Below, one piece after another: positions 3,899-7,419 of a stretch of DNA of 64,000 nt; within the stretch, counting starts at the first letter, position 1, and each line of letters begins with the position of its first letter. A program made the position numbers and the translations under genes. The notes under the pieces were generated by a model that made no database searches, was not told the origin of the DNA, and saw nothing but the letters and a program-made list of their open reading frames with translations. Source of the DNA: Pseudomonadota bacterium (GTDB taxonomy: Bacteria; Pseudomonadota; Alphaproteobacteria; Caulobacterales; Parvularculaceae); NCBI GenBank assembly GCA_038522735.1, contig JBCBJX010000003.1, positions 20,685 to 84,684 of the forward strand, written 5' to 3'.

Positions 3899-3907
3899 GG
3901 AGCGGGC

Positions 3908-4078
3908 GTGACGGTCGAAGGCGACAATAAGCCCGAAGGCGAAACGGACTGGTTCGGACGGCTCAACGAGACCGAACGGACCGCGGTCGTCATCGGCGGC
4001 GTCTTCGTCGCGCTGGTCGTCTTGCTGATCGTCGGCGTCAGCCTCACGCAGGCGCTGCTCGCCGTTCGGGCGGGGTAG
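3908..4078 (+). CDS. 56-aa single-pass membrane mini-protein between atpA and atpG (unknown function)
   Basis: It is not in the ORF track because it is under 60 aa. The GTG start lies 6 nt after the SD-like AAGGAG that overlaps the atpA stop. Translation: VTVEGDNKPEGETDWFGRLNETERTAVVIGGVFVALVVLLIVGVSLTQALLAVRAG, with one clear hydrophobic helix and mostly G/C third codon positions. Confidence 0.5.
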   Translation: MTVEGDNKPEGETDWFGRLNETERTAVVIGGVFVALVVLLIVGVSLTQALLAVRAG

Positions 4079-4100
4079 AGGAAAGATAAGGCGCTCATAA

Positions 4101-4982
4101 ATGCCGAGTTTGAAAGACCTCAAAAACCGCATCGGTTCGGTGAAGTCGACGCGGAAGATTACGAAGGCGATGCAGATGGTTGCCGCAGCGAAGCTGCGCA
4201 AAGCGGAGCAGGCGGCGAATGCGGCCCGTCCTTATGCGGAGCGCATGGAGGCGGTGCTCGCCAACGTCTCTGAAGCCGTGAAGGGCGACCCCTCCGCGCC
4301 GAAGCTGCTGACCGGCACGGGCGAGGACAAGACCCACCTGCTCGTCGTCGCGACGGCTGACCGGGGGCTTTGCGGCGGCTTTAACTCCTCCATCGTCCGC
4401 AAGGCGCGCGAGGCGGTCGTCCGCCTGCAGGGCGACGGCAAGACGGTGAAAATCCTCTGCATCGGCCGGAAGGGCCGCGACCAGCTGAAGCGCCTCTATG
4501 GCGACCTCATCCTCGACACGATCGAGCTGATGGACGTGAAGTCCCTCGACTTCTCCGTCGCCGACAGGATCGCGGGCCGTGTCCTCAAAATGTTCGAGGA
4601 CGGCGAGTTCGACGTCTGCACGCTCTTTTTCGGCGAGTTCAGGTCGGTCATCTCCCAGGTGCCGACGGCGAACCAGATCATCCCTGCGACGCCGCCCGGG
4701 GGCGTCGAGACGCCGGACCTTCAGGGCGCCGTCTACGTCTATGAACCGGACGAGGAAGAAATCCTGAAAGCCCTGCTGCCGCGCTATGTCGGCGTGCAGA
4801 TCTTCCGGGCGCTGCTTGAAAACGCCGCGTCCGAGCAGGGGGCCCGCATGTCGGCCATGGACAACGCCACCCGCAACGCCGGCGATATGATCGACAAGCT
4901 GGAGCTTCAGTACAACCGCGCCCGCCAGGCGCAGATCACCAAGGAACTCATCGAGATCATCTCGGGCGCGGAAGCGCTCTGA
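4101..4982 (+). CDS. atpG: F0F1 ATP synthase subunit gamma
   Basis: The N-terminus '[35 protein letters not shown]' and the C-terminus '[25 protein letters not shown]' are canonical for AtpG. Confidence 0.97.
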
Positions 4983-4992
4983 TCTGCTAGCA

Positions 4993-5021
4993 TTGACAGC
5001 ACGTTTCGCAATCGACATATC
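4993..5021 (+). promoter_or_regulatory. candidate sigma70-type promoter for the vapB-like gene, implying a leaderless or near-leaderless mRNA
   Basis: A perfect TTGACA (4993-4998) is followed by a 17-nt spacer and CATATC (5016-5021). The ATG is at 5028, only 6 nt downstream, and no SD sequence is visible. Confidence 0.4.
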
Positions 5022-5027
5022 CCGCTC

Positions 5028-5354
5028 ATGAAAACGATCACCATCAGACAGGTCCCCGACGAGGTGCACGAGGCGCTCCGCCTGCGCGCCGCCGCGGACG
5101 GCTGCTCGATGGAGGAAGAGGCGCGCCGGCTGCTTGCGCAGTCCCTGCGGCCGGCCGCCAAGCCTGATTTCAGCGGCGTGCGGGCCATTCAGGCGCGCAT
5201 CAGGACACGACGCGAGCGGACCGGCGATGCGCGAACTGCTGCGGAAATCGTCCGCGACATGCGGAACGAGGATCTCGCTGCGACGGATGCGAAATGGGAA
5301 CGGATCGACGCCGACGCGAAGCGGCGGCGTGAAGAGGGCGGGGGAGGCGTATGA
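5028..5354 (+). CDS. type II antitoxin, ribbon-helix-helix (FitA/VapB-like)
   Basis: The N-terminus 'MKTITIRQVPDEVHEALRLRAAADGCSMEEEARRLL' matches the beta-strand plus two-helix RHH pattern of plasmid-stability/FitA-type antitoxins. It overlaps the downstream PIN gene by 4 nt (ATGA). Confidence 0.75.
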   Translation: MKTITIRQVPDEVHEALRLRAAADGCSMEEEARRLLAQSLRPAAKPDFSGVRAIQARIRTRRERTGDARTAAEIVRDMRNEDLAATDAKWERIDADAKRRREEGGGGV

Positions 5355-5746
5355 TGCTCGATACGTCAGCCGTCCTTGCTTTCTTTTTCGATGAACCGGG
5401 CGCCGACACCGTCGAGCAGGCCTTGCCGGGGGCTGCGATTTCCGTAGTGAATCTCGGCGAACTGTTCGGCGTCGTCCGTCGCAGCGGGGTTGAGGCAAGC
5501 CCGCGGGAGGTCGAGGGGCATCTCGCTTCGGCCGGCGTCTCAGTCGTGTCGCCGACCTCGGCGACCGCGCGCCTCGCCGCCGACTACGTCGCGACCCCGA
5601 CGCCTCGGGGCGCAGCGTCGATCTCCCTCGCCGATGGGTTCTGCCTCGCCCACGCCGCCGAAGCCGGCGTGCCCGTGCTCACCGCCGACAGGGCGTGGGC
5701 CGAGACGCCCTTCGAGCATCCCGTCGATATCCAACTCGTTCGCTGA
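5351..5746 (+). CDS. vapC: type II toxin, PIN-domain ribonuclease (VapC-like)
   Basis: 131 aa. '[12 protein letters not shown]' supplies the first PIN Asp. Further acidic residues lie in 'NLGELF', '[11 protein letters not shown]' and 'VLTADRAW', in the usual VapC spacing. It is translationally coupled to the upstream antitoxin. Confidence 0.8.
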
Positions 5747-5783
5747 CGCCAGCGATCCGCACACGACCCGAAGGAAAGACATC

Positions 5784-7214
5784 ATGGAACAAGGTCGCAT
5801 CACCCAGGTCATCGGCGCCGTCGTGGACGTCGCCTTCGACGGCAATCTTCCCGCCATCATGAACGCGCTGGAGACGGACAATAACGGGAACCGCCTGGTG
5901 CTCGAGGTCGCCCAGCACCTCGGCGAGAACCAGGTTCGCACCATCGCGATGGACTCCAGCGAGGGTCTCGTCCGCGGCGGCGTGGTGAAGGACACGGGCG
6001 CGCCCATCCGGGTGCCGGTCGGCGAGGGCACCCTCGGCCGCATCATGAACGTCATCGGCGAGCCGATCGACGAGGCGGGTCCGATCCAATTCAACGACAC
6101 CCGCCCGATCCACGCGGAAGCTCCGCCCTTCGTCGAGCAGTCGACGGAATCGGAGATCCTCGAGACCGGCATCAAGGTCATCGACCTCCTCTGCCCCTAC
6201 GCCAAGGGCGGCAAGATCGGCCTCTTCGGCGGCGCGGGCGTCGGCAAGACAGTGCTCATCCAGGAGCTGATCAACAACATCGCCAAGGTGCACGGCGGCT
6301 ATTCCGTGTTCGCCGGCGTCGGCGAGCGCACCCGGGAGGGGAACGACCTCTACTGGGAGATGATCGAATCGAACGTCAACAAAGATCCGAAGGCGAACAA
6401 CGGCACGGCCGAAGGCTCCAAGTGCTCCCTCGTCTACGGTCAGATGAACGAACCGCCGGGGGCCCGCGCCCGCGTCGCGCTGACCGGCCTTTCAGTGGCG
6501 GAGCACTTCCGCGATCAGGGTCAGGACGTTCTGTTCTTCGTCGACAACATCTTCCGCTTCACGCAGGCCGGCTCTGAAGTCTCGGCGCTCCTCGGCCGGA
6601 TCCCCTCGGCCGTCGGCTATCAGCCCACCCTCGCGACGGACATGGGCGCCCTGCAGGAGCGCATCACGACGACCACCAAGGGCTCCATCACCTCGGTTCA
6701 GGCCGTGTACGTTCCGGCCGACGACCTCACCGACCCGGCGCCGGCGACGTCCTTCGCTCACCTCGACGCGACGACGGTTCTCAACCGCGCGATCTCGGAA
6801 AAAGGCATCTACCCGGCCGTCGATCCGCTCGATTCAACGTCCCGCATCCTCGACCCGCGGGTCGTCGGCGAGGAGCACTACCAGGTCGCCCGTTCCGTCC
6901 AGCAGATCCTCCAGCGCTATAAGTCGCTGCAGGATATCATCGCCATCCTCGGCATGGACGAGCTGTCGGAAGAAGACAAACTGACCGTCGCCCGCGCGCG
7001 GAAGGTCGAGCGCTTCCTGTCGCAGCCCTTCGACGTCGCGGAAATCTTCACCGGCTTCCCGGGCAAGCAGGTTCCGGTGAAAGACACCGTCGCCTCCTTC
7101 AAGGCCGTCGTCGCCGGCGAATACGACCACCTGCCTGAAGCGGCCTTCTACATGGTCGGCTCCATCGAGGAGGCCGTTCAGAAGGCGGAGAAAATGGCGG
7201 CGGAAGCGGCGTAA
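5784..7214 (+). CDS. atpD: F0F1 ATP synthase subunit beta
   Basis: It starts '[20 protein letters not shown]' and has the P-loop '[11 protein letters not shown]' and the DELSEED-type '[10 protein letters not shown]'. The track ORF starting at 5490 is an upstream extension in the same frame. Confidence 0.97.
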
Positions 7215-7218
7215 ATCG

Positions 7219-7419
7219 GTGGCGGACGGGCTTCGCCTTGAGGACTGCGTCAACGACGTCTGTCCATGGTCGGGCGATCCCGTCTCGGCCGACAGCCTGA
7301 CGACCTATCGCGGACGGGTCGTCGGGTTCTGCAATCCAAGGTGCCGCGACAAGTTCGAACGCGCTGTCGTCGCCTTTGACGACGTGCTCCAGGCAAGCGA
7401 GCCGACCGATGGCCGATAA
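7219..7419 (+). CDS. 66-aa Cys4 (C-x4-C-x22-C-x3-C) putative zinc-ribbon / TRASH-YHS-like mini-protein
   Basis: The GTG start is 4 nt after the atpD stop. The core is 'CVNDVCPWSGDPVSADSLTTYRGRVVGFCNPRCRDKFE', with four Cys in metal-binding spacing. Third positions are mostly G/C, and the 3' end overlaps the atpC start by 11 nt. Confidence 0.5.
   Translation: MADGLRLEDCVNDVCPWSGDPVSADSLTTYRGRVVGFCNPRCRDKFERAVVAFDDVLQASEPTDGR

Follow-up and report, generated by a model that had tools for sequence, protein, structure and literature searches.

The F1 ATP synthase operon atpHAGDC of a bacterium of the Parvularculaceae was analysed in a 64-kb window (the whole stretch of 64,000 nt from contig JBCBJX010000003.1), in which a preliminary description had placed extra coding sequence, with exact coordinates, at every junction of atpA-atpG-atpD-atpC. 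All three units proved to be real genes. Positions 1809-7801 of the + strand read atpH-atpA-orf56-atpG-vapB-vapC-atpD-orf66-atpC, and the three guests were a gene for a small membrane protein (orf56), a toxin-antitoxin pair (vapBC) and a gene for a small cysteine protein (orf66) (Table 1). A comparison with related operons suggested that the guests are probably three unrelated passengers of three different ages, which were inherited and lost separately.

Table 1. Features of the F1 operon in the window and the basis of each assignment
Feature	Position	Strand	Basis
atpH, delta/OSCP subunit, first gene of the F1 operon	1809..2363	+	Pfam OSCP, E 1.1e-50; 184-aa form agrees with the gene calls in L166 and L082
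atpA, alpha subunit	2369..3898	+	Open reading frame (ORF); 95% identity to atpA of L166 and L169
AAGGAG, Shine-Dalgarno sequence of orf56, overlapping the atpA stop codon	3897..3902	+	Sequence reading; 5 nt before the GTG at 3908
orf56, 56 codons, guest 1, predicted single-pass membrane microprotein, clade-restricted	3908..4078	+	Homologue at the same junction, selection, GC content at third codon positions (GC3)
atpG, gamma subunit	4101..4982	+	Pfam ATP-synt, E 1.1e-101
vapBC cassette as indel unit, guest 2: own leader, vapB, vapC and a tail of ~10 nt	4983..5756	+	blastn against L169
AGCATTGACAGCA, invariant block 5' of vapB with a perfect TTGACA; candidate -35 box and VapB operator	4989..5001	+	Invariant in four aligned loci
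vapB, antitoxin, FitA-like ribbon-helix-helix, 108 aa	5028..5354	+	Pfam PF22513, E 4.3e-17
vapC, toxin, PIN-domain nuclease, 131 aa	5351..5746	+	Pfam PIN, E 7.2e-17
atpD, beta subunit; true start ATG 5784, with GAAGGAAAG just before it	5784..7214	+	Sequence; 476-aa gene call in L081 (GCA_039820005.1, assembly of the window itself) agrees
orf66, 66 codons, guest 3, YHS/TRASH-like small cysteine protein	7219..7419	+	Homologues, context, model
atpC, epsilon subunit, full-length 130 aa	7409..7801	+	Pfam ATP-synt_DE_N, E 2.5e-26

Occurrence of the guests at the junctions of other operons

Analysis of related loci (numbered with the prefix L) showed that each unit occurred at the same junction in relatives and that none was private to this genome (Table 2). 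The earlier view of the units as insertions in this lineage was thus contradicted, and the possibility it had allowed for, the same ORFs at the same junctions in relatives, was found for each unit separately, whereas no relative with all three together was found. The further claim of three independent additions was borne out by the phylogenetic distributions and ages of the units, which differed.

Table 2. Occupants of the three internal junctions in the window and in its relatives
Locus	atpA-atpG	atpG-atpD	atpD-atpC
Window	orf56	vapBC	orf66
L169/L170	orf55	none (26 nt)	orf66
L166/L167	none (25 nt)	vapBC	none (4 nt)
L082	none	vapBC	orf68 and a 352-aa gene
L006	different 140-aa ORF	vapBC	none
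L002	none	none	none

The window, L166 and L169 differed by 12.6-13.1% over atpA/G/D/C and formed one clade, and their next neighbours L082, L006 and L002 were 19-24% apart; L167 was a 1.2-kb contig that covered the atpG-atpD junction only. In the blastn alignment, positions 2802-4982 and 5757-7624 of the window were contiguous with positions 1-2175 and 2176-4044 of L169, which indicated that the vapBC cassette was precisely absent there: the missing stretch began directly behind the atpG stop and ended 27 nt short of the atpD ATG. The atpD leader was recognisably alike in filled and empty sites, and atpC of L166 began at the position where orf66 starts in the window. No marks of mobile elements (terminal repeats, target-site duplication or mobility gene) were found at the cassette edges, and the indels were clean, without duplicated bases. 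The cassettes were also considered as mobile elements (insertion sequence, miniature inverted-repeat transposable element or integron cassette), and this was rejected because repeats, duplications and extra copies were lacking. Deletion of vapBC in L169 by recombination between two TGA stops was likewise rejected because the sequence to the right of the junction did not fit. Since close relatives carried different subsets of the units with clean boundaries, each unit is dispensable for the ATP synthase. The most parsimonious history consisted of a gain of orf56 in the stem of the window and L169, a loss of orf66 in L166 and a loss of vapBC in L169.

To place the window among Alphaproteobacteria, AtpG was scanned against one genome per species, and the junctions of the resulting 80 alphaproteobacterial loci were measured by tblastn. 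The closest AtpG in this species collection was just 73% identical, which means that the collection held no close relative. The gaps in the window were 202 nt at atpA-atpG, 801 nt at atpG-atpD and 194 nt at atpD-atpC, versus medians of 36, 83 and 88 nt; gaps of at least 150, 300 and 150 nt were present in 7 of 76, 13 of 77 and 16 of 72 loci, respectively. The compact layout that had been taken as normal for atpHAGDC in Alphaproteobacteria therefore holds for the typical operon, as a median. The gaps of the window lay above these medians, but expanded junctions are a sizeable minority, and all three were expanded also in the surveyed operons L017, L033 and L037. The fillers elsewhere included LysE and PhyH genes and, at atpD-atpC, uncharacterised proteins of 155-166 aa and small membrane ORFs. 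The F1 junctions of Alphaproteobacteria are permissive, recurrently used landing sites.

Several of the other occupants were recorded in the course of the survey. Five operons, belonging to Hyphomicrobiales and to a Caulobacterales-like order (L016:6889-7308, L023:4851-5273, L025:6888-7304, L037:3033-3452 and L061:6876-7298), carried a gene for an OsmC-like (Ohr-type) protein of 138-140 aa at atpG-atpD, the junction of vapBC in the window, and thus a second family of recurrent guests there. Small coiled-coil proteins of ~52-105 aa were encoded between atpG and atpD in four operons (L010:6895-7125, L017:7386-8052 with three tandem copies, L033:1579-1812 and L047:6889-7206); they shared the pattern ...DLK.R....E......L......R.D.F..RL.R.ERRL.L.. 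and gave only sub-threshold DUF7310-like matches in Pfam. At atpA-atpG, L006 carried a 140-aa ORF (L006:2796-3218) whose N-terminus (…LFPLCGGCGS…) resembled a signal peptide or lipobox and for which Pfam gave no match; because it differs from orf56, this junction was occupied independently. In L082, a 352-aa gene (L082:7290-8348), for which Pfam gave only faint matches to membrane-protein DUFs, lay between the orf66 homologue and atpC and adds a fourth type of guest to this family of operons.

Properties of the three guest units

The product of orf56 contained 20 consecutive hydrophobic or small residues (VVIGGVFVALVVLLIVGVSL) and a conserved acidic N-terminal segment (ETDWFGRL.ETERTAVV), and it matched no Pfam or NCBIfam family. 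A word-indexed search of 5.8e9 proteins returned the query only; the resulting view of orf56 as an orphan was abandoned because an exhaustive HMMER search gave a single homologue, P0242 (55 aa, 65-69% identical depending on the alignment, E 4.7e-14). In L169 and L170, which are metagenome contigs from different samples, the gene for this protein likewise lay between atpA and atpG; orf56 was absent from L166 and from all other loci. Between the two genes, the frame, length and stop position were kept, 27 of the 51 differences fell at third codon positions, and the in-frame pN/pS was 0.44 (Fisher p 5e-4), with a Jukes-Cantor-corrected dN/dS of 0.28; the two other frames contained stops and gave ratios above 1.7. 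The GC content at the three codon positions was 0.72/0.40/0.88, and GC3 and codon score were like those of the atp genes. orf56 is a real, clade-restricted gene under purifying selection, and its product is a predicted single-pass membrane microprotein.

The pair at 5028-5746, described earlier as vapBC-like, was confirmed by two Pfam matches far above their cut-offs. VapB matched FitA-like_RHH with 62.2 bits (cut-off 27), and VapC matched PF01850 (PIN) with 62.5 bits (cut-off 23.6) over profile positions 1-119 of 120. The antitoxin gene came first, and the start of vapC overlapped the stop of vapB by 4 nt (ATGA). The acidic PIN residues D4, E37, D95 and D113 were present, and D, E, D and D were kept in L082 and L006. 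The arrangement atpG-RHH-PIN-atpD was found also in the Parvularculaceae metagenome-assembled genomes (MAGs) L006 and L082 and in the much closer L166 and L167, and these four other Parvularculaceae-like loci represented three further lineages. Relative to L166, vapB was 77% and vapC 70% identical (P0123), with dN/dS values of 0.22 and 0.20, and the blastn alignment was collinear with 83.7% identity over 3.1 kb through atpG, vapBC and atpD. The purifying selection together with the intact acidic residues indicated that the module is maintained and not decaying. The features of both genes are those of an intact type II toxin-antitoxin module of the FitAB/VapBC class, with predicted toxicity.

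The block AGCATTGACAGCA (13 nt) was identical in the window, L166, L082 and L006, whereas the remainder of the vapB spacer was divergent. It formed the core of a 10-nt inverted repeat in L082 and L006 and only a short palindrome in the window, and it occurred once in the 64 kb, in which 0.01 chance matches were expected. It is a putative -35 box and operator of vapBC. The GC3 of vapB and vapC was 0.78-0.80 versus 0.86-0.89 for the atp genes, and the host codon score was lower too. The module is best seen as a selfish one sheltered between two essential genes. The idea of the operon as a safe harbour, raised in the preliminary description, fits vapBC and also the many unrelated guests found elsewhere (OsmC, LysE, PhyH and coiled-coil).

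Between the atpD stop and orf66 lay 4 nt, and orf66 overlapped the start of atpC by its final 11 nt. The Pfam YHS match of its product was below threshold (E 0.0023, 18.3 bits versus a gathering cut-off of 30.3), and the NCBIfam scan gave matches at noise level only (E >= 0.14). A protein search at E<=0.001 returned at least 731 clusters of homologues, mostly of 61 aa, with the family signature CPWSGxPVxxDSLT.Y.G.VVGFCN.GCRDKF and 21 invariant columns. Invariant residues included C15, C38 and C42 as well as PWSG, VGFCN and R43, and C10 was kept in at least 90% of the family, with S or A in a few members; the label "Cys4" used earlier is hence correct for orf66 of the window and not for the family, in which only C15, C38 and C42 are invariant. 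The cysteine motif of YHS/TRASH domains (C ... FC-x3-C) was present, and of 34 family members, 29 gave a YHS match in Pfam with E<=0.01 (best E 1.7e-06), none of which reached the cut-off. In an AlphaFold2 model with a predicted local distance difference test score of 86.6, residues 23-37 formed a β-hairpin and residues 40-59 a helix. A Foldseek search of this model against the PDB gave nothing significant (all E >= 0.48), and the top non-significant matches were eL24, the YHS-bearing phenol/toluene hydroxylases (phenol hydroxylase alpha) and the TRASH domain of ZMYM5, structures that have a treble-clef-like fold in common. A profile search of the PDB sequences returned only spurious ARH3 matches and hence no solved relative by sequence. 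The family probably descends from YHS/TRASH metal-binding domains and forms a tight family of its own below the Pfam cut-off, and its members probably bind metal.

The names given to the family in the databases were "YHS domain-containing" at JGI and "glutathione S-transferase" in several NCBI MAG records; the latter label was carried by the YHS-like proteins P0012, P0033, P0067 and P0092 of 61-68 aa. A length of ~61 aa looks too short for the glutathione S-transferase fold, and that family was not among the NCBIfam matches of orf66 of the window at E<=1. The name looks like a propagated misannotation.

The genomic context of orf66 was determined from a metagenome scan with the family alignment (80 further loci), pooled with individual look-ups and excluding the record of the window itself. 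atpD lay directly 5' and atpC directly 3' of the homologue in 76 of 84 loci, mostly soil contigs resembling one order and therefore not 76 independent observations, and three more loci were cut by a contig end and consistent with atpD-orf66-atpC. Extra DNA was present between the homologue and atpC in L082 and L108, and never between atpD and the homologue. Three of the 84 homologues were located away from atp operons (L085:5001-5264, L123:838-1041 and L144:415-672); these were 64-74% identical, and two of them were missing the first cysteine. The one in L085 adjoined an AraC/DJ-1 regulator and a transporter of the major facilitator superfamily, and that in L144 lay just 3' of an unannotated 122-aa ORF. 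Among the surveyed operons, a homologue was present in 5 of 72, always at atpD-atpC, and absent in 67. The carriers were Aestuariivirgaceae L004, Hyphomicrobiales L031 and L068, the Rhizobiaceae-group MAG L035 and Alkalicaulis satelles G-192 (L049), the last of which is a named strain and not a MAG. The order atpHAGD-orf66-atpC was found also in the Sphingomicrobium-like contigs L083, L084 and L171-L173, and junctions of this type occurred in loci of Maricaulales, Hyphomicrobiales and Parvularculaceae. In L171-L173, the start and stop of the homologue overlapped both neighbours, and in L083 and L084 there were gaps of 1-5 nt.

In the Sphingomicrobium-like carriers, epsilon was just 86 aa long and consisted of the β-sandwich domain alone (L083:7191-7451, L084:5188-5448, L171:6191-6451 and L173:6188-6448). 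A role of orf66 as replacement for a lost C-terminal domain of epsilon was rejected, because the window, L004, L031 and L068 have orf66 together with an epsilon that aligns over 130 residues; the epsilon match stopped at residue 118 in L035 and L049, both with orf66.

Across orders, the 54-aa core of orf66 was 56-89% identical, versus 42-84% for the N-domain of epsilon, and its identity correlated with that of the flanking atpD and atpC (Spearman 0.46-0.49 over 91 non-independent pairs). Between the window and L169, dS was 0.48 for orf66 and 0.47 for atpD, an equality that points to descent together with the flanks, and dN/dS of orf66 was 0.26-0.45. orf66 was absent from L166, L006 and L002. 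From its distribution and divergence, orf66 is judged to be an old resident of the operon and not a local insertion. As a separate observation, orf66 begins with V/M-A-D, like atpC (M-A-D-K), and holds the same position after atpD as atpC in L166 (window 7215-7230 compared with L166:6613-6630); orf66 may have taken over the original initiation region of atpC, or the resemblance may be due to chance.

The remaining features of the window were as follows. A longer atpD ORF from 5490 was rejected as an artefact that merely lacks an upstream stop, and many long spurious ORFs were present on both strands of this genome with 65% GC. A simple consensus scan found neither a terminator-like hairpin nor a sigma-70 match in any junction. 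The composition profile of the window had no sharp GC break, no second copy, paralogue or repeat of the three inserts was found elsewhere in the 64 kb, and an Rfam scan of the whole window gave a single tRNA, far from the operon. Just 3' of atpC and convergent with it, a 602-aa protein with many GGxGxD-type repeats of ~18 aa was encoded on the - strand (7805-9613); its Pfam scan gave no match. The counterpart in L166 had 522 aa, and the repeat region aligned in several registers.

Origin of the guests and alternative explanations

The three guests lie on the operon strand and are most likely carried on the atp operon transcript as parts of one transcription unit. The geometry of the atpD-orf66-atpC junctions suggests that initiation of orf66 is coupled to termination of atpD, and initiation of atpC to termination of orf66, in which case the output of orf66 would roughly follow that of beta and epsilon. 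orf56 appears to be young and would be translated from its own strong Shine-Dalgarno sequence overlapping the atpA stop. The vapBC pair would have entered the atpG-atpD junction in the ancestor of a family-level group and would since have passed down by vertical descent, along with a -35/operator-like element of its own; it is probably autoregulated from its own promoter, with reading through into atpD. Between essential genes, presumably only precise excision is tolerated, which together with addiction to the toxin may account for its persistence. Units would be lost by precise deletion or exchanged via recombination in the flanking conserved atp genes.

Several observations weigh against this history. 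The gene-wise similarities among the window, L166 and L169 conflicted and left their branching order as a trichotomy, which makes loss and recombination indistinguishable. L002, which grouped with L006 and L082, was free of guests and demands extra losses. VapC of the window shared just 35-40% identity with its counterparts in L006 and L082, and unrelated actinobacterial VapCs reached 47%; owing to this low identity, replacement of the cassette or independent capture is conceivable. Orthology of the vapBC pairs of the window and L166 with those of L082 and L006 was indicated only by position, by the N-terminus of VapB (67-70% over ~39 aa) and by the 13-nt block, and no full sigma-70 match was found 5' of vapB in the simple consensus scan. 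The relatives were all MAGs or metagenome contigs, with L166/L167 and L169/L170 each coming from two independent samples, and the redundancy among the 76 orf66 contexts belongs with these points.

Among the other explanations, the mosaic could have arisen mainly by homologous recombination, with operon segments swapped via atpA, atpG and atpD, and not by independent deletions; this is possible, although we consider it rather less likely than not. Recombination through the conserved atp genes is conceivable because the gene-wise similarities conflict: the closest pair was window-L166 for atpG and L166-L169 for the amino acids of atpC, and the nucleotides of atpA and atpD were marginally closest in L166-L169. 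The cassette edges also coincided exactly with gene ends and were scarless, and orf66 of the window was closer to that of L082 (78-84%) than to that of L169 (70-74%). However, the differences in identity were small and the genes short, for which sampling noise suffices, and dS of orf66 equalled that of the flanking atpD. The idea of the preliminary description that this lineage recruited all three units into its ATP synthase, as accessory or regulatory subunits, is improbable. The operon strand, the tight spacing, the coupling signals and the purifying selection on all units would agree with it, as would the conserved position of orf66 across orders, but nothing connects vapBC, a canonical toxin-antitoxin pair, with ATP synthase, orf56 is confined to one narrow clade, and relatives at ~13% divergence with an otherwise intact operon lack orf56 and orf66 (L166) or vapBC (L169). 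Furthermore, no likeness to epsilon, zeta/DUF1476, IF1 or AtpI was found in Pfam or NCBIfam at E<=1, and no PDB chain matched. Recruitment as a necessity was excluded, since close relatives lack each unit, and an optional accessory role is conceivable for orf66 only.

An origin of the three units in recent horizontal insertions into this particular genome is very improbable and already largely refuted. The lower GC3 and codon score of vapB and vapC and the orf66 homologues outside atp operons in L085, L123 and L144 would suit such an origin, but each unit stood at the same junction in relatives with a synonymous divergence like that of the flanks, and terminal repeats, mobility genes, a second copy in the window and a sharp composition break were all lacking. 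It is scarcely credible that orf56, and possibly orf66 too, are chance ORFs in a GC-rich spacer. The genome is rich in long spurious ORFs, and orf56 has no family and one homologue; against this, orf56 kept its frame, length and stop in L169, with third-position bias, a pN/pS of 0.44, a GC3 of 0.88 and a strong Shine-Dalgarno sequence, and orf66 had at least 731 homologous clusters and 21 invariant columns. For orf66 itself, the choice lies between a long-term passenger at a strongly expressed site and an optional F1-linked factor. We tentatively propose, while regarding it as doubtful, that the family is an optional and so far undescribed F1 partner in Alphaproteobacteria, which would act as a metal- or redox-sensitive assembly factor or as a regulator of beta and epsilon.

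Significance and comparison with known systems

The ATP synthase operon usually passes for an invariant textbook unit. The results showed that occupants of the F1 junctions in Alphaproteobacteria can persist very long and yet be cleanly lost, and the close relatives with different subsets of cassettes offer natural knock-out comparisons. A toxin-antitoxin module held between two essential genes over family-level time bears on the persistence of selfish modules and on whether such modules give atpDC an internal, stress-responsive promoter. Mitochondria arose from Alphaproteobacteria, whose ATP synthase is the closest bacterial relative of the mitochondrial enzyme, and orf66 is a testable candidate for a new accessory factor of this synthase.

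Compared with known FitAB/VapBC systems, vapBC of the window was alike in gene order, the ATGA overlap, the sizes of 108 and 131 aa, the Pfam scores, the acidic residues and the upstream inverted-repeat or -35-like element. It was unlike them in its location inside an essential housekeeping operon instead of a plasmid, an island or a free-standing locus, and in being kept across family-level divergence; a location between atpG and atpD was not mentioned in the literature searched. orf66 resembled YHS (PF04945) and TRASH domains, which occur in the N-termini of Cu-ATPases, the alpha subunit of phenol/toluene hydroxylase, ZMYM and eL24, in its C-x22-(F)C-x3-C motif with a preceding C-x4-C and in its predicted order of a β-hairpin followed by a helix. 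In contrast to these, orf66 was below the gathering cut-off, stand-alone, ~61 aa long and nearly fixed between atpD and atpC, and it had its own signature CPWSGxPV...VGFCNxGCRDKF, which was more conserved than epsilon across orders.

orf66 was also compared with zeta (DUF1476), IF1 and the C-terminal domain of epsilon. All are small, confined to Alphaproteobacteria or commoner there, and might act on F1. Towards its C-terminus, orf66 had a helix (residues 40-59), and it is through helices that zeta, IF1 and epsilon inhibit; the analogy is functional only. Unlike these proteins, orf66 was cysteine-rich, lay inside the F1 operon and had no similarity to them in sequence or fold. Zeta is encoded outside both atp operons, epsilon in Alphaproteobacteria is non-inhibitory and often C-terminally truncated, and AtpZ is encoded next to AtpI in the Fo operon (PMC9317440). 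orf56 was similar to AtpI and to AtpZ/AtpR-type proteins in being small, hydrophobic and co-encoded with ATP synthase genes. The AtpI-type genes belong to Fo operons and encode several membrane helices, whereas orf56 lay in the F1 operon, encoded one helix, had no Pfam match and was restricted to one narrow clade. Neither the atpD-YHS-atpC arrangement nor guests in the atpHAGDC operon were described in the literature searched. The vapBC pair is an ordinary member of its class in an unusual, long-held location.

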